Source: Candidatus Doudnabacteria bacterium (GTDB lineage Bacteria; Patescibacteriota; JAQUNI01). Taken from it: a stretch of DNA of 64,000 nt. This document shows positions 6,951 to 60,442 of the stretch, piece after piece. The notes beneath the pieces are model-generated. The model saw only the letters and a program-made list of their open reading frames with translations, ran no database searches and was not told the DNA's origin. The stretch is from assembly GCA_041644975.1 (NCBI GenBank), contig JBAZQX010000007.1:1906-65905 (forward strand), in the 5' to 3' direction. Position 1 is the first letter of the stretch, and each line of letters starts with the position of its first letter. The translations under genes were made by a program, and so were the position numbers.

Positions 6951-6957
6951 TCTTTTG

Positions 6958-7030
6958 AGGCCTAGGTGGGATTTGCACCCACGAATCACGGTTTTGCAGA
7001 CCGTTGCGTTAACTACTTCGCCACTAGGCC
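6958..7030 (-). tRNA. tRNA-Cys(GCA)
   Basis: GGCCTAG acceptor, anticodon loop CTGCAAA, T-arm GTGGGTGCAAATCCCAC. Length 73 nt. Confidence 0.85.
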
Positions 7031-7273
7031 ATATTCAATTTTCAGCAAATCCTTCTGTTGGTGAGTTTTATAGAATTTCTCCATTTCAATTGCCTCACTA
7101 CGGGTCGGAAATTCCTTATAACCTAACAACCGCCACGGACAATATGCTTTAGTTGATTTTACCTTACCGCTGTTATGTCGTTTAAATCTAACTTTCACAT
7201 TTTCCGTACTGCCTACATACAAATTATTATTTTTTAGGCTAAGTAAAAAATATACATAATACATAGAAATCAT
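7013..7273 (-). CDS. GIY-YIG nuclease family protein (small UPF0213/YhbQ-like)
   Basis: YYVYFLLSLKNNNLYVGST...RFKRHNSGKVKSTKAY...EAIEMEKFYK matches the GIY-YIG motifs. The 3' end overlaps the tRNA-Cys 5' end by 18 nt on the same strand. Confidence 0.8.
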   Translation of the reverse strand: MISMYYVYFLLSLKNNNLYVGSTENVKVRFKRHNSGKVKSTKAYCPWRLLGYKEFPTRSEAIEMEKFYKTHQQKDLLKIEYGLVAK

Positions 7274-10000: not shown

Positions 10001-10079
10001 TAAACTTAAATAGCGTATTTTGCAAAGTAAAACCGCAAAGTTCCAAAACACGCCCCATTTAGGAGCGTGTTTTTAGTTG

Positions 10080-10151
10080 AGCGGGTGAGCGGAATTGAAC
10101 CGCCTTCTCATCCTTGGCAAGGATGTATAATAACCGTTATACGACACCCGC
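10080..10151 (-). tRNA. tRNA-Gly(GCC)
   Basis: GCGGGTG acceptor, anticodon loop TTGCCAA, T-arm GGCGGTTCAATTCCGCT, discriminator U. Confidence 0.85.
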
Positions 10152-10154
10152 AGG

Positions 10155-10823
10155 TTAGATTAATTTTTCTAATCCTAATATCCAACCTTTGATTTTATTA
10201 ATTAACTCCATGTGAGACACCGAGACCCTCAATGTGCCATAAGGCAGACGATTGATAGTGCGTTTCCCTTTACTAGATGGAGTAACGCGAGAATAAGTTT
10301 TTAAAAATTGATTCTTGGGAATACGAGTTATTTTGGACCAATAATTAACCGCTCCCTCTGCGGTAACATTCGGATGAATCTGCACTGCAGCGAAAAATCT
10401 ATCTTCTCGAACATGGCAAATCTCTCGAAAAAACCTCATCATTAACTTGATCATACCGGGATCAGCATTAGAGAAATCCACGCGCCATCTTGATCGTTTA
10501 TGCCCTTCTGCCCAGTATAAAGCCACGCCTACTAAAAATAGTTCTCTTTTGGACAACTTATGAATATCTTGAGAGGCTAGATATTGTATCTTTTCCGCTC
10601 TCTCCTGCGCAAGCATGGCCCTTTTCTTATTAAATTGCGTTATATTATATGCCCATTTTCTGCGCGTTTTATGCCAAAACTTCTTTTTAATCCCAACAGG
10701 CATCTCAACATCCTTTAACCAATAAGAAAGGGTGCTCTTGGGGACTCCCAAAATTTGATTTATTTCATTATAACTCTTACCCTGTTTTCGCAACAAAGTT
10801 GCGGAATATTGCTTTGCCTTCAT
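10155..10823 (-). CDS. HTH domain-containing protein of unknown function; stop codon 4 nt from the tRNA-Gly 5' end
   Basis: N-terminal SYNEINQILGVPKSTLSYWLK helix-turn-helix. The rest is unassigned. Confidence 0.55.
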   Translation of the reverse strand: MKAKQYSATLLRKQGKSYNEINQILGVPKSTLSYWLKDVEMPVGIKKKFWHKTRRKWAYNITQFNKKRAMLAQERAEKIQYLASQDIHKLSKRELFLVGVALYWAEGHKRSRWRVDFSNADPGMIKLMMRFFREICHVREDRFFAAVQIHPNVTAEGAVNYWSKITRIPKNQFLKTYSRVTPSSKGKRTINRLPYGTLRVSVSHMELINKIKGWILGLEKLI

Positions 10824-10895: not shown

Positions 10896-11231
10896 TGCCG
10901 GGGGAGAGAATCGGACTCTCGACACGATGATTTTCCATTGCTCTCTCGGATTTCTCCGAGGATTGGACTATCTCTTCTCCTCACCTAGAAATAACAAATT
11001 CTCTTTAGGTGAGGGGCTGGGCGCTTAATGCAGGATTATTATTGGGATTCACCCGCTAGTCTCTACACCTTCTCCTCTAATTAAACCCATAAAGGAGCTT
11101 GGCTCGGGATTACCATATCCCTTTGAATAAAAGGATTTAGGCTTCCCCGAATTCACCCAGTTTGCGCTTCCATATCGCTATGAAAGGGACCGAAAATTCA
11201 GTCATCTGCTCTACCACTGAGCTACCCCGGC
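10896..11231 (-). tRNA. tRNA-Phe(GAA) interrupted in the anticodon loop by a ~264-nt group I intron
   Basis: 5' exon GCCGGGGTAGCTCAGTGGTAGAGCAGATGACT; 3' exon GAAAATCATCGTGTCGAGAGTCCGATTCTCTCCCCCGGCA. Joined, they give a canonical Phe tRNA with GATGA/TCATC anticodon stem, loop CTGAAAA and A73. Confidence 0.7.
10936..11199 (-). ncRNA. Group I intron within tRNA-Phe (boundaries +/-3 nt because of GAA repeats at both junctions)
   Basis: Contains an R-like element (gtagAGACTAgcgg) and an S-like element (aagAGATAGTCCaatcc) that can pair as P7. The 5' exon ends in U and the intron ends in G. Confidence 0.6.
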
Positions 11232-11236
11232 AAGTT

Positions 11237-11365
11237 GGTAATCAGTAATTAGTAATTGGTAATTAGGGTAAACCCCGCACCGTCCGCCTTTGGCGGACTG
11301 GTGCGTGGGTAAACTCGCCCTTTGGGCGAGAAATTCCTGATTACTAGTTACTGATTACCGATTAC
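11237..11365. repeat. Family G element: inverted arms of degenerate taat-cag/tag/tgg heptamer-like repeats around a GC hairpin (ccgcaccgtccgcctttggcggactggtgcg)
   Basis: ggtaatcagtaattagtaattggtaattag ... ctgattactagttactgattaccgattactaattac. The second copy is at 60340-60442. Confidence 0.65.
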
Positions 11366-13104
11366 TAATTACTATTTCCTAACCCATTAACATAAACATA
11401 ATATCCTAAACTACCCAGGTTGTAAACCTTTAAATTGTAGTATGCCCCTCCTTTTCCCCAATCTTTCATAAACCCCCAGCCATTCCAAGAAAGAACATTT
11501 AAATTTTGGGAGATTTTACTTTCAGGATGCTCGTATGTTCCTTCCAAAGCGACCAGTTCCGATTTCTGATCCTTATTGAAATCTCCCGCCTCAATCTCTA
11601 AAAGAGGTTTGTCTAAAATTGACGAGCCCCAGATTAAATCAAGCTTTTCTTTTTTCAAATTATATAAAAACAAGTGGCTTCCCCAATGCTCTTTGTTTTC
11701 CGCATTCGCGAGGGGCGAGTTCTCCGCGTAATCCCCCTTTTTCCATAGGGCTAAAGCAAGGTCGGGTTTAGCGTCGCCGTTAAAATCGCCAACCGTATAA
11801 TCATTAACCACCCAAGCGGGATCGCTTTCCCAAATCTTTGTTTCATTTTGAAAAACTTTAACCAAGCCTTGATCCAAAATAATCTTTTCTTCTTTAGTGT
11901 CCTGATCTAAATCTTGATTAAGGAGAGAAGGAATCCCCGCAAAGACGACCCCGCTTTTCAAGCCCAAACTTGTTTCTTCTTGGTACGCTCCATTTTGAAA
12001 AGAAAAGGAAGGCTGTTCGTCTAAAGCAATGCCCAACATTTTAAGGAGCCTATTCTGTTCGCTTGGAGAAACAAACTGGGGCTGACTGTAATCAAAAATT
12101 TTGACGGGTAAAAAATTCAGCTCTACTACGCCATCGCGGTCCAGATAGATGTCCGCGACCATCCCCTCCCGCGTCTCCTCGCTCCACATCTGGTCAAAAA
12201 CAAAATTGCCTAAAGAATAGATAATATACTTGCCTTTATATTTTTCCACGGTCTGAAACCAATGCGGATGATGGCCGATCACTAAATCCGCGCCCGCGTC
12301 AATCGCTTGGCGGGCAAAAGCGATTTGCCCCGCGTTGGGAGCGCGCTTATACTCTGTGCCCGCGTGCATAGAAATAATTACCAAATCCGCTTCTTTTTTC
12401 GCCTTTCCTAAATCACTTTTTAAATCCTCTGTGTTCATTATCGCCGCGCCGGCGTTATTCTCCTTGGCTTCGGTGTTGCCAGCGTAAGTATAAGCTAAGA
12501 AGGCAATTTTAAGATTATTTCTTTCCACTATTGCCGCTTGATGCGCCGTTTCGCGATTTAATCCAGCGCCAACGCCTTGAATGCCCTCTTGCTCCAATAA
12601 TTCCAAAGTTTTTTTAAGACCTTTATCCCCTTGGTTCATAATATGGTTATTGGCTAGGGATAAAACATCAAAACCGACCTTGGTCAGCGCTCCCGCGCAT
12701 TCCGGATCCGCGCGAAAAACCATACTGGGAGTACGCACGGGCTCACCAGCAAGGAGGGGCGACTCTAAATTGCCGAAAGTGATATCGGCATTTTGCAAAA
12801 ATTGCCCCATTTTCCGGAAAGGATATTGATAATCATTATATTCCACCATCTTTTGGCCTACATTGCGCGAAAGCATCATATCGCCCACTGCCACGAGATG
12901 GACCAAAGGCTTCGCGGGAACAGGAAGACTCGGCTTTTCTAACACTGCTTCACTTTCCTCTTTGACTTCCGCGGACAGAGGCAATCTTTTTCGGCTCTCT
13001 TTAAAGTAAGTGAACGGCTCGTTAATAGGCAAAATTCTAAAAAGCGCCACCCCAATGATGACAATAAGCGGAACTATAAACCAGAATAAAATTTTGGAAA
13101 ACAT
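11365..13104 (-). CDS. CapA family protein (poly-gamma-glutamate/capsule biosynthesis metallophosphatase domain) with C-terminal repeat domain
   Basis: N-terminal TM segment. VAVGDMM...LVIGHHPHWFQ metallophosphatase motifs. C-terminal FG-GAP-like GDFNGD repeats. Confidence 0.8.
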   Translation of the reverse strand: MFSKILFWFIVPLIVIIGVALFRILPINEPFTYFKESRKRLPLSAEVKEESEAVLEKPSLPVPAKPLVHLVAVGDMMLSRNVGQKMVEYNDYQYPFRKMGQFLQNADITFGNLESPLLAGEPVRTPSMVFRADPECAGALTKVGFDVLSLANNHIMNQGDKGLKKTLELLEQEGIQGVGAGLNRETAHQAAIVERNNLKIAFLAYTYAGNTEAKENNAGAAIMNTEDLKSDLGKAKKEADLVIISMHAGTEYKRAPNAGQIAFARQAIDAGADLVIGHHPHWFQTVEKYKGKYIIYSLGNFVFDQMWSEETREGMVADIYLDRDGVVELNFLPVKIFDYSQPQFVSPSEQNRLLKMLGIALDEQPSFSFQNGAYQEETSLGLKSGVVFAGIPSLLNQDLDQDTKEEKIILDQGLVKVFQNETKIWESDPAWVVNDYTVGDFNGDAKPDLALALWKKGDYAENSPLANAENKEHWGSHLFLYNLKKEKLDLIWGSSILDKPLLEIEAGDFNKDQKSELVALEGTYEHPESKISQNLNVLSWNGWGFMKDWGKGGAYYNLKVYNLGSLGYYVYVNGLGNSN

Positions 13105-23477: not shown

Positions 23478-23945
23478 GTGGATCCACCAAAAGGCGGAAC
23501 TTCGGGTATTACCGGCTCTTCTGACGTGACGGGCGATTATCTTCTTATAAACGTAAGAATTGATGTTCCCACCCAGCGAGCGGATTTCCCGCACTAGGCG
23601 AGTTCTAATGCATTTTCTTCTTCATTAGAATGGCTCCTTTCCCCATACTCGGGGTATTATGAGCCAGCTGACTTCTGACGCTGCGTTAGTTTTATTATAT
23701 AACTCGATTGAGTTAAACCGCAACATCAGATCTCCCGGGGTCAGTTTAAAAACTTTTCCTAACATCCCAAAGAAGCTTTTATATAATTTTCCCTATGCTC
23801 ACCACCCTACCATAGGTCAATTAACTTCTTTAATTTTTGGGCTGCTATTTGTTTCCGGATCCTCTGCTAACATCCTCGCGGATGTTAACTATCCTTCAAC
23901 TACGCTCTAAACGAGATTAGAGGGACGGATTTTAACCGTCTGGTT
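23478..23945 (-). other. ~430-470-nt insertion in the 16S rRNA between the GTAC(A)C 1395 block and the CGCCCGTCA 1400 block
   Basis: The conserved blocks are ~490 nt apart here versus fewer than 100 in canonical 16S. No sense-strand ORF of 60 aa or more. Confidence 0.6.
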
Positions 23946-24443
23946 TTTAAACCTGCCCGGCGCAGATTTTGTGAGTACAAGACCTGGGAACGTATTCACC
24001 GCGACATGGCTGATTCGCGGTTACTAGCGATTCCGGCTTCATGAGGTCGAGTTGCAGACCTCAATCCGAACTGGGGGTGCTTTTGATGGGATTAGCTATA
24101 GCGTTACCGCGTCGCGTCCCATTGTTACACCCATTGTAGCACGTGTGTCGCCCAGGGCATCAAAGGCCATGCTGACTTGACGTCGTCCCCACCTTCCTCC
24201 GACTATCTGCCGGCAGTCTCGCGTGACATAGTAACACGCGACAGGGGTTGCGTTCATTCCCGGACTTAACCGAACATCTCACGACATGAACTGACGACAG
24301 CCATGCAGCACCTGATCCCAAGGTTCCCCCCATAAAAAATCCAATTTTTAATTTTAAATTTTTAATTGAATTCCTTATGGGGGCACATCTCAGTTTCCTA
24401 AGATCTCCTTGAGCGTCTTGCCCTGGTAAGGTTCCTCGCTTAC

Positions 24444-24477
<34 letters not shown>

Positions 24478-24489
24478 AGGTCCCCGTCT

Positions 24490-24521
<32 letters not shown>

Positions 24522-24954
24522 TCCCAGGCGGGGCACTTAACGCGTTAGCTTACGACACTGAAGGGGTCGAGCCTCCAATGCCTAGTGCCCATCGTTTACA
24601 GCGTGGACTACTGGGATATCTAACCCCATTCGCTCCCCACGCTTTCGTCCTATGAGCGTCAGAATCGTTCTAGTAAGCTGCCTTCGCTATTGGTGTTCCT
24701 GCCGATATTAACGCATATCACTACTACACCGGCAGTTCCGCTTACTTCTCCCGACCTCTAGTCTTGAAAGTATCCAACCCTTTCCCTTGGTTAAGCCAAG
24801 GTCTTTAAGGTTAGACTTTTCAGACCGCCTAGGGACGCTTTACGCCCAATAAATCCGGATAACGCTTGGACCACTCGAATTACCGCGACTGCTGGCACGA
24901 GTTTAGTCGGTCCTTATTCGTAGGGTACCTTCAAACGTGCCTCGCTACCGCTCG

Positions 24955-25200
24955 GCACTAAATATAAATTTACAATTTTTAATTTTAAATTTTAATTCAA
25001 ATCCAAATTTTAAAATTGATTAAAAATTTCCGCCTGAAGAGCGGATCGGCTCTTCGACTCTGAAGACTCATTAGAGTTCGTTCAGAGCCTGAACAACCTA
25101 AACGACCTAGGGCTGAAAAAATTTAGAATTAAAAATTTACAGAGTGCTGAACGTAAGTGAAGCACGTCTTATTCCCCTATAAAAGCAGTTTACACTGAAG
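24955..25200 (-). other. ~240-nt AT-rich insertion in the 16S rRNA between the 357 and 515 conserved blocks (V3 region)
   Basis: Spacing of ~400 nt versus ~160 nt in canonical 16S. Confidence 0.5.
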
Positions 25201-25743
25201 AACAGCTTCTTCCTGCACGCGGCGTCGCTCCTTCACCCTTTTGGGGCATTGAGGAAGATTCTCGACTGCAGCCTCCCGTAGGAGTCAGGGCAGTGTTTCA
25301 GTCCCCGTGTGCGAGGGCATCCTCTTAGACCTCGTAACCGTCATAGCCTTGGTGAGCCTTTACCCCACCAACTAGCTGATAGTCCGCAGGCCCTTCTTGA
25401 AGCGATAAATCATTTACCATAACTAATGAATAGCTATGGCACATCGGGAATTAGTCCGCCTTTCGGCGAATTATGCCCGTCTTCAAGGTAGGTTACCAAC
25501 GTGTTACTCACCCGTTTGCCACTGTCCGCCTAACTTTTCTTGCGAAAAGTTTGGCGGACCGTTGACTTGCATGCCTTATCCACGCCGCCAGCGTTCATCC
25601 TGAGCTAGGATCAAACTCTCAAAAAAGATAATCAGCAATTAGCTCATAAAAGCTAGATTACTAATTATATAAATAGACGTTCCTATCACTATTTAATTGT
25701 CAAAGTTCAAAAATATTTTTGCTCTTAAACTAGAGCATAATTT

Positions 25744-60322: not shown

Positions 60323-60339
60323 ATTTCTTTCAGTAATCA

Positions 60340-60442
60340 GTAATTAGTAATTGGTAATTGGTAATTTTGGCACCTCGAGCCAATAATTTCCTGATTACTG
60401 ATTACTGATTACCGATTACCGATTACTTACAGATTACTAATT
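60340..60442. repeat. Family G element (inverted taatcag/taattag/taattgg-type arms around ggcacctcgagcc), upstream of rpsA
   Basis: cagtaatcagtaattagtaattggtaattggtaatt...cctgattactgattactgattaccgattaccgattac. Confidence 0.65.

Follow-up and report, generated by a model that had tools for sequence, protein, structure and literature searches.

The tRNA-Phe locus

The DNA analysed is a stretch of 64,000 nucleotides (nt) of contig JBAZQX010000007.1 from a Candidatus Doudnabacteria bacterium (assembly GCA_041644975.1), a member of the Patescibacteria or candidate phyla radiation (CPR). The whole of this stretch is referred to as the window. The element in question is a group I intron in the anticodon loop of a tRNA-Phe(GAA) gene. 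The split gene occupies window positions 11231-10896 on the minus strand and is followed on that strand by an open reading frame (ORF) and a tRNA-Gly(GCC) gene. Read along the minus strand, the 336-nt precursor consists of GCCGGGGTAGCTCAGTGGTAGAGCAGATGACT, the 264-nt intron and then GAAAATCATCGTGTCGAGAGTCCGATTCTCTCCCCCGGCA, and CCA is not encoded in the gene. The joined exons form a 72-nt tRNA to A73, a standard cloverleaf in which every stem is fully paired. ARAGORN calls tRNA-Phe(gaa) from the joined exons and also from the split gene when introns are allowed, in the latter case with a 264-nt intron. In default mode the program reports five tRNAs in the window and misses the tRNA-Phe gene. 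No second tRNA-Phe gene was found within the 64-kilobase (kb) window by ARAGORN, either in default mode or with introns allowed. A second assembled contig (Logan SRR8449827) contains the same 336 nt without a single difference.

The intron opens with GAAUUUUCGG and closes with CAAUG. The Rfam model RF00028 (Intron_gpI) matches positions 11209-10944 on the minus strand over its full length (model positions 1-253). The score of 92.9 bits (gathering score 50; E = 1.4e-22) lies well outside what chance would give. This is the sole group I match in the 64 kb, and no other split tRNA or intron was found in the window by the Rfam scan or by intron-aware ARAGORN. The R element, AGAGACTA, is located at 11064-11057 and the S element, AGATAGTCC, at 10973-10965.

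A G on either side of the junction means that the cut can be written as U33|G34 or as G34|A35, the form printed by ARAGORN, and the mature tRNA is identical for both. The U·G wobble in P1 arises only with the U33|G34 cut. The terminal G was present in 29 of 29 introns taken from loci that were selected by protein, the extraction itself having searched for a G at this place. By complementarity, the bases UUC of the internal guide (11194-11192) could pair with G34 A35 A36, the first bases of the 3' exon, as P10; ahead of the first splicing step they would pair with the first bases of the intron. These results bear out all the structural points of a preliminary description of this DNA, made from the sequence without database searches, in which two exons joining into tRNA-Phe, a 264-nt group I intron in the anticodon loop, R and S elements pairing as P7, a U before the 5' splice site (U33, 11200) and a G at the end of the intron (10936) had been proposed.

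Secondary structure and covariation

The fold of the intron was examined in two alignments of related introns. A1 is a MAFFT alignment of tRNA-Phe introns found by a sequence pattern, together with the window intron and a published Doudnabacteria sequence. The pattern, the end of the tRNA-Phe 5' exon followed by the start of the intron, was scanned for in one genome per GTDB species and fixes part of P1. A3 contains 21 introns that were found by way of the neighbouring protein, plus the window intron, and is independent of the intron pattern. The elements of the fold are listed together with the surrounding features in Table 1.

Table 1. Features of the tRNA-Phe locus in the order in which they are read on the minus strand, on which all of them lie (nt, nucleotides; bp, base pairs; aa, amino acids)
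Feature	Window position	Description	Basis or support
tRNA-Phe 5' exon	11200..11231	GCCGGGGTAGCTCAGTGGTAGAGCAGATGACT, 32 nt; acceptor strand, D-arm, 5' strand of anticodon stem, C32 and U33	Sequence, ARAGORN
P1	11188..11203	Exon GACU and intron GA with internal guide UCGGUC; wobble U33 (11200)·G (11191)	Rfam alignment
Group I intron	10936..11199	264 nt, between U33 and G34; encodes no protein	Rfam RF00028; covariation in A1 and A3
P2	11167..11186	Hairpin, 8 bp, GCGA (GNRA) loop	8/8 pairs change on both sides
P3, 5' strand	11154..11160	CUGGGUG; partner 11023-11017	98.5-100% of cells pair
P4-P6 domain	11067..11150	P4 is 11150-11145 with 11109-11104	
P5/P5a	11142-11112	Carries the motif CCUAAA...UAUGG	
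P6/P6a	11103-11067	GGG in loop	
P7, 5' strand	11057..11063	G-A-GACUA (R element) with bulged A; guanosine-binding helix; partner 10970-10965	
P7.1	11030..11056	Hairpin GCGGG/CCUGC, 17-nt loop UGAAUCCCAAUAAUAAU; between P7 and 3' strand of P3	
P3, 3' strand	11017..11023	CGCCCAG; between the two strands of P7, giving the P3/P7 pseudoknot	
P8	10979..11014	Hairpin, 9 bp and extension	8-9/9 pairs change on both sides; MAFFT register poor in distal P8
P7, 3' strand	10965..10970	UAGUCC (S element)	
P9	10945..10960	Hairpin, 6 bp, GAAA loop; absent in some relatives	6/6 pairs covary
Terminal G (omega-G)	10936	Last base of the intron	Sequence
tRNA-Phe 3' exon	10896..10935	GAAAATCATCGTGTCGAGAGTCCGATTCTCTCCCCCGGCA, 40 nt; G34 A35 A36 A37 A38, 3' strand of anticodon stem, variable loop GTGTC, T-arm, acceptor strand and A73	
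ORF	10155..10823	222 aa; 72 nt separate it from tRNA-Phe upstream and 3 nt from tRNA-Gly downstream; lies outside the intron	
tRNA-Gly(GCC)	10079..10151	Follows the ORF in the array Phe-ORF-Gly	

A P1-P9 fold with the P3/P7 pseudoknot and the pairing of the guide with the 5' exon, the structure on which the preliminary description had made its reading depend, could be built and is backed by covariation in both samples. In A1, 86.4% of the cells pair; sliding the 3' partners by 1-3 columns lowers this to 32-49%. Of the 74 pairs, 47 change on both sides. The corresponding values for A3 are 88.8% and 32-50%, and across the two alignments 47-48 of 74 pairs change on both sides. Two pairs of P3 switch between U-A and C-G, and in P7.1 93-100% of the cells pair with changes on both sides in 4-5 of the 5 pairs. 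Both helices are paired in 100% of the cells of A3, with U-A/C-G and G-C/A-U switches. The P7 helix, bulged A included, is near-invariant, with one unpaired cell in A1 and none among the 22 sequences of A3; this invariance gives no evidence of covariation but agrees with the Rfam consensus.

The U·G pair at the splice site is retained in 30/30 relatives in A1 and in 22/22 in A3. Covariation with the guide is seen at exon positions -4 and -3 (G-C/C-G and A-U/C-G/G-C) and also at intron position +1. The motif in P5 looks like the 11-nt receptor for a GAAA tetraloop. An extra element between P7 and the 3' strand of P3, the position that P7.1 has here, marks subgroup IA.

The P6a loop has GGG (11088-11086) and the P7.1 loop CCC (11046-11044). 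Across A1 and A3 the GGG tends to co-occur with a P7.1 loop of the form GUGAGYCCCAACAAUAAUC; where the P7.1 position instead holds an insert of two hairpins, the GGG of the P6a loop is mostly missing (crude count 36/7/3/9, odds ratio 15, Fisher p = 2.5e-4). The two loops may form a loop-loop tertiary contact.

Distribution and relation to known introns

The classical group I introns of bacterial tRNA genes are of subgroup IC3 and are found in cyanobacterial tRNA-Leu(UAA) at 34/35, in tRNA-fMet at 33/34, in Azoarcus tRNA-Ile and in Agrobacterium tRNA-Arg. They are also listed in two recent surveys (PMC13011429; bioRxiv 10.1101/2020.01.27.920355). In the second, the classes of tRNA introns were raised from 4 to 21 (Williams 2020). 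In the first, 22 tRNA genes with group I introns were reported from 95 complete Patescibacteria genomes, none of them assigned to IC and nearly all to IA (Nakagawa et al. 2026, mSystems, PMC13011429). One of the 22 is Phe(GAA) 33/34 in the Doudnabacteria genome GCA_016699995.1 (Tables 1 and S3 of the same paper). The kind of intron described here was thus already published in January 2026, and the window intron is a new member of it.

The scan of GTDB species representatives yielded at least 29 more genes for tRNA-Phe(GAA) that are split at the same position by an intron of 202-283 nt, and about 30 metagenome loci also hold a tRNA-Phe 33/34 intron. Together with the window there are at least 58 distinct introns of the class, with lengths of 202-451 nt and a median of about 238 nt among the matches listed. 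The window intron aligns over its full length with 29 genome members and about 29 metagenome members. Most carriers in the genome scan have names of Patescibacteria or CPR lineages. The tRNA-Phe 33/34 intron class is common in Patescibacteria, and the view in the preliminary description that a tRNA-Phe host is unusual is outdated, though a sensible one in the light of the older papers.

Several intron-bearing contigs, some of them with the ORF as well, are filed as Gammaproteobacteria or Bdellovibrionales metagenome-assembled genomes (L017, L052, L068, L079, L093 and L100); these labels are probably due to mis-binning or mis-labelling. Two of the introns, of 451 nt in L134 (tRNA-Phe 183-707) and 440 nt in L169 (2520-3034), have about 200 extra bases that the nhmmer coordinates place in the P4-P6 region. 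Nucleotide identity was of no use for placing the window intron, all relatives being 64-73% identical.

The published Doudnabacteria Phe intron shares host tRNA, U33/G34 site and phylum with the window intron and is 73.5% identical to it over 204 aligned bases. It begins gaatcttcgggcc where the window intron has gaattttcggtcc. P1 is laid out alike in the two, with GAAUYUUCGG and after it a guide fitted to the anticodon stem, and both have the P7.1 loop GUGAGCCCAACAAUAAUC and the GGG of the P6a loop. The anticodon stem and the guide differ in a compensatory manner (GACU/GGUC in the window, GCCU/GGGC in the published sequence). The window intron is longer, 264 nt against 211 nt, with a longer P5a and P8 and a P9 hairpin with a GAAA loop, whereas the published intron has no P9 hairpin.

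The Patescibacteria introns in tRNA-Asn (35/36) and tRNA-Asp are 69% and 73% identical to the window intron, respectively. They have the same architecture and conserved core, and most encode no protein. The Asn intron, which self-splices in vitro (PMC13011429), has P2, the receptor-like motif of P5, the GGG of L6a, the P7.1 loop GUGAGCCCAACAAUAAUC and the GAAA loop of P9 in the same places. The differences are in the host tRNA and in the insertion site, which is two bases further 3'; in the HNH endonuclease gene that some Asn introns carry and the window intron does not; and in the kind of evidence, since splicing of the Asn and Asp introns has been assayed and the window intron is known from sequence.

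Compared with the IC3 introns the likenesses are of a more general kind: a site in the anticodon loop, a P1 that uses the anticodon stem, a small size (200-250 nt) and similar P4-P6 and P3-P7-P8 cores. The tRNA-fMet intron even has the same 33/34 site, and the Nostoc Leu intron is about 73% identical to the window intron over 196 alignable bases. In the IC3 introns P7 leads straight to the 3' strand of P3, whereas the window intron has the 27-nt P7.1 hairpin there. A tRNA-Phe 33/34 intron of a Saccharimonadales locus (L020:42-348, minus strand) has no P7.1, so that P7 runs straight into the 3' strand of P3 as in IC3, and its 5' half still matches the IA-like members. Because of this combination, the distinction between IA and IC3 may be fluid within the lineage at this insertion site.

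The ORF family adjoining tRNA-Phe

Relatives show the same gene order, Phe-ORF-Gly(GCC), whether or not the intron is present. The ORF family has at least 782 homologues, nearly all of about 222 aa and almost all named as hypothetical or helix-turn-helix (HTH) proteins of Patescibacteria lineages. The protein of the window gave only weak, sub-threshold matches to HTH models. No curated LAGLIDADG model matched the family, and the Pfam, NCBIfam, PHROGs and PDB sequence searches reach the N-terminal HTH only. An alignment of 31 diverse members shows an invariant GxALYWAEG as well as FxNSDP, QIHPN and LPYGT. E106 and G107 of GxALYWAEG are invariant in the 31 members, and the motif reads VALYWAEG in the window; its likeness to LAGLIDADG was judged by eye. 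The AlphaFold model built from this alignment has a mean predicted local distance difference test score (pLDDT) of 88.9, and a Foldseek search of the model against the PDB gave no convincing match.

The ORF product is read as an N-terminal HTH followed by a single LAGLIDADG-like domain, a reading that is based on the predicted fold and the motif and not on sequence models. Known one-domain LAGLIDADG homing endonucleases are I-CeuI, I-MsoI and I-CvuI, and WhiA is a transcription factor that has LAGLIDADG domains plus an HTH. In the model the ORF product shares with LAGLIDADG proteins the position of the motif (here ALYWAEG) at the end of the first helix, with an invariant acidic residue, and with WhiA, if the reading is right, the combination of a LAGLIDADG-like domain and an HTH. 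The HTH is N-terminal in the ORF product and C-terminal in WhiA, which moreover has two degenerate LAGLIDADG domains. The ORF is a stand-alone gene between tRNA genes and is not contained in an intron or intein. As far as our searches show, a stand-alone LAGLIDADG-like family that flanks tRNA genes is undescribed in the literature searched. The preliminary description had pointed to a nearby HTH gene of unknown function; HTH and nearness hold, to which are now added the LAGLIDADG likeness and the fact that the gene flanks tRNA-Phe with and without an intron.

Association of the ORF with the intron

Seen from the intron, the association appears close. A full-length ORF homologue lies within 155 bp in 17 of the 30 intron-bearing tRNA-Phe loci listed, the window included. 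Eleven of these 17 ORFs are downstream and six upstream of tRNA-Phe, and all but one are on the strand of the tRNA. Three further intron loci have C-terminal fragments of the ORF (that of L109 perhaps cut by the end of the locus, those of L048 and L069 being remnants), and the other 10 of the 30 are without it. Seen from the protein, the picture is different. A metagenome scan with the alignment of the ORF family gave 78 distinct loci. The ORF adjoins a split tRNA-Phe in about 31 of them, an uninterrupted tRNA-Phe in 27 and in 11 a tRNA-Glu, whose 5' end is often overlapped by 6-8 nt. Nearly all the other loci are cut by contig ends or adjoin other tRNAs. The initial idea of an ORF tied to the intron was rejected on the basis of this second sample. 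What the ORF family keeps to is tRNA genes, and tRNA-Phe most of all: its members lie almost only between tRNA genes of Patescibacteria. Since split and uninterrupted tRNA-Phe genes are flanked with about equal frequency, the family is not specific to the intron.

Presence or absence in near-identical arrays, decayed copies (L048 and L069) and a place on either side of tRNA-Phe according to lineage are what one expects of a stand-alone gene that is mobile or often lost. The arrays Val-Phe[intron]-Met-Gly (L017) and Val-Phe[intron]-ORF-Met-Gly (L041) differ by an insertion or deletion of about 700 nt and are otherwise 87-97% identical. On a neighbour-joining tree of the ORF proteins the intron state needs 6 changes, as against about 21 (minimum 14) with the labels shuffled. 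Because of this difference, intron and ORF are taken to have been passed on together, for the most part, within clades. The window, L123 and L125, all intron-bearing, are placed among intron-less Phe-ORF-Gly relatives on this tree, which is without support values; there are hints of a gain of the intron in the lineage of these three.

Two explanations give the ORF a part in the life of the intron. In the first, the ORF product is a stand-alone homing endonuclease that cuts ORF-less tRNA-Phe genes, and the intron is either co-converted with the ORF or protects the host gene. Such collaborative homing was reportedly described by Zeng, Bonocora and Shub in 2009 in a cyanophage, where it involved an intron in psbA and an endonuclease next to it. 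The full-length ORFs near 17 of the 30 listed introns and the remnants at three more are in line with it, as are the invariant Glu-Gly of GxALYWAEG, the clean presence or absence of the ORF between L017 and L041 and its position on either side of tRNA-Phe according to lineage. About half of the ORF-flanked tRNA-Phe genes carry the intron against 1/95 complete genomes in PMC13011429, a comparison that mixes different samples. The ORF needs no intron, however, as the 27 intron-less tRNA-Phe and 11 tRNA-Glu loci among the 78 show, and a third of the listed intron loci have no ORF. Since the intron state follows the ORF clades, shared descent can explain much of the co-occurrence. No endonuclease model of Pfam, NCBIfam or PHROGs matches the ORF. 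This explanation is on balance unlikely. The same low estimate is given to the broader proposal that the family consists of LAGLIDADG-type homing endonucleases aimed at tRNA genes, with clades for tRNA-Phe or tRNA-Glu, which would drive the spread or retention of introns by co-conversion or by disruption of the target.

In the second, the ORF product would be a maturase, an adjacent LAGLIDADG-like protein that the intron needs to fold or splice in the cell. Some LAGLIDADG proteins of fungal mitochondria do act as maturases for group I introns. The ORF adjoins the tRNA on the same strand, its predicted fold is read as LAGLIDADG-like, and the strong conservation of length and motifs in the family suggests a selected function. 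This function would have to be exercised also in the half of the family that flanks intron-less tRNA-Phe or tRNA-Glu, while a third of the intron-bearing genes listed would have to do without it. The core of the intron is complete, the GAAA (GNRA) loop of L9 and the receptor-like motif of P5 could stabilise the fold alone, and close relatives splice in vitro without protein (PMC13011429). A maturase is given a good deal less credence than collaborative homing.

Other features of the window

A GIY-YIG gene at 7013-7273 on the minus strand encodes 86 aa that consist of the GIY-YIG domain only (Pfam E = 1.7e-18) and overlaps the 5' end of tRNA-Cys (6957-7030, minus strand) by 18 nt. The preliminary description had mentioned it as lying near the intron. 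The domain was recovered with Pfam, but no link to the intron was found: the gene is 3.6 kb off, and in relatives it has no constant place close to tRNA-Phe.

At 11234-11383 and 60333-60426 the heptad GTAATYR is repeated in runs that make up long, imperfect inverted repeats. The runs at 11234-11383 flank two G+C-rich hairpins and are situated just upstream of tRNA-Phe and downstream of a PGA_cap gene. There are 15 matches to the pattern where 0.01 would be expected, and one weaker match with two mismatches is found at 2418-2436. The element may be a terminator or a small repeat element.

The 16S rRNA gene (23919-25626, minus strand) has an A+T-rich insertion of 222 nt at about 24930-25160, after position 458 or so of the Rfam model. 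The possibility of a second intron was considered for this insertion and rejected, no Rfam intron model matching even at E values up to 1. Expansion segments are common in the 16S genes of CPR bacteria, and the insertion is probably one of these.

Discussion

The complete match to the group I model, the fold backed by covariation in two samples and the many relatives with the same insertion site leave little doubt in our view that the element is a genuine group I intron, without a protein of its own, at U33/G34 of a Patescibacteria tRNA-Phe(GAA) gene. It is probably self-splicing, because it is 69-73% identical to Patescibacteria tRNA introns that splice in vitro. The gene would be transcribed as the 336-nt precursor, in which P1 would form at the expense of the anticodon stem: the guide UCGGUC would pair with exon GACU and the first bases of the intron, placing U33 in the U·G wobble. 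A free guanosine bound in P7 would then attack after U33. The terminal G (10936) would take over the guanosine site, while UUC and G34 A35 A36 would form P10 and align the 3' exon. Joining of the 3'-OH of U33 to G34 would restore the anticodon loop CUGAAAA. Catalysis is expected to proceed without the help of a protein. Splicing of tRNA-Phe should be essential in this genome, because the Patescibacteria genomes listed from the tRNA-count table of Nakagawa et al. (2026, PMC13011429) have one tRNA-Phe gene each and the window has no second.

Several points weigh against this view of the intron. A1 and A3 hold related sequences, so that the shuffle control, in which the observed values of A1 were reached by 0/500 shuffles, overstates the significance, and the comparison with slid partners is the fairer one. 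The window intron has the P7.1 typical of subgroup IA, an assignment that rests on this hairpin and on the statement of the published survey. The search for a second tRNA-Phe gene covers the 64 kb of the window only. The T-loop of the tRNA (10915-10909, minus strand) is TCCGATT, with C at position 55 (10914) in place of the canonical T54-U55-C56. U55 is near-universal in tRNA T-loops. The same TCCGATT is found in four relatives (L031, L040, L049 and L093), the others having TTCGATT or TTCAATT, and because of these four the C55 is probably tolerated, a variant of the lineage rather than a sign of decay. Finally, splicing in vitro was tested for the Patescibacteria Asn and Asp introns only (PMC13011429).

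That the split gene is a decaying pseudogene or the relic of a dead intron, with another tRNA-Phe gene in use, might be argued from the C55 and from the mere 64 kb of genome inspected, but is highly improbable given that all stems of the cloverleaf are perfect, that nothing is damaged in the core helices, the P7 site, the U·G pair or the terminal G, all of which match at least 50 relatives under clear structural constraint, that the Patescibacteria genomes listed from the published table have a single tRNA-Phe each, and that the window holds no other.

As a genuine intron of tRNA-Phe, the window sequence is a well-documented addition to a class that was known in print from a single genome, and a secondary structure supported by covariation is now available for the tRNA-Phe 33/34 introns. 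The only visible tRNA-Phe gene is missed by default tRNA finders, which affects estimates of gene content and of completeness in CPR bacteria. The intron alone is of modest interest, and the neighbouring ORF family is the more useful lead. Endonuclease genes were found in only 12/333 bacterial tRNA introns, from which a limited horizontal transfer has been argued (PMC13011429). If members of the ORF family are endonucleases, this would bear directly on the question how tRNA introns that encode no protein are able to move or to persist in genomes of very small size, and a family of endonucleases that targets tRNA genes would, if real, overturn the published view of these introns as largely immobile for want of endonuclease genes.

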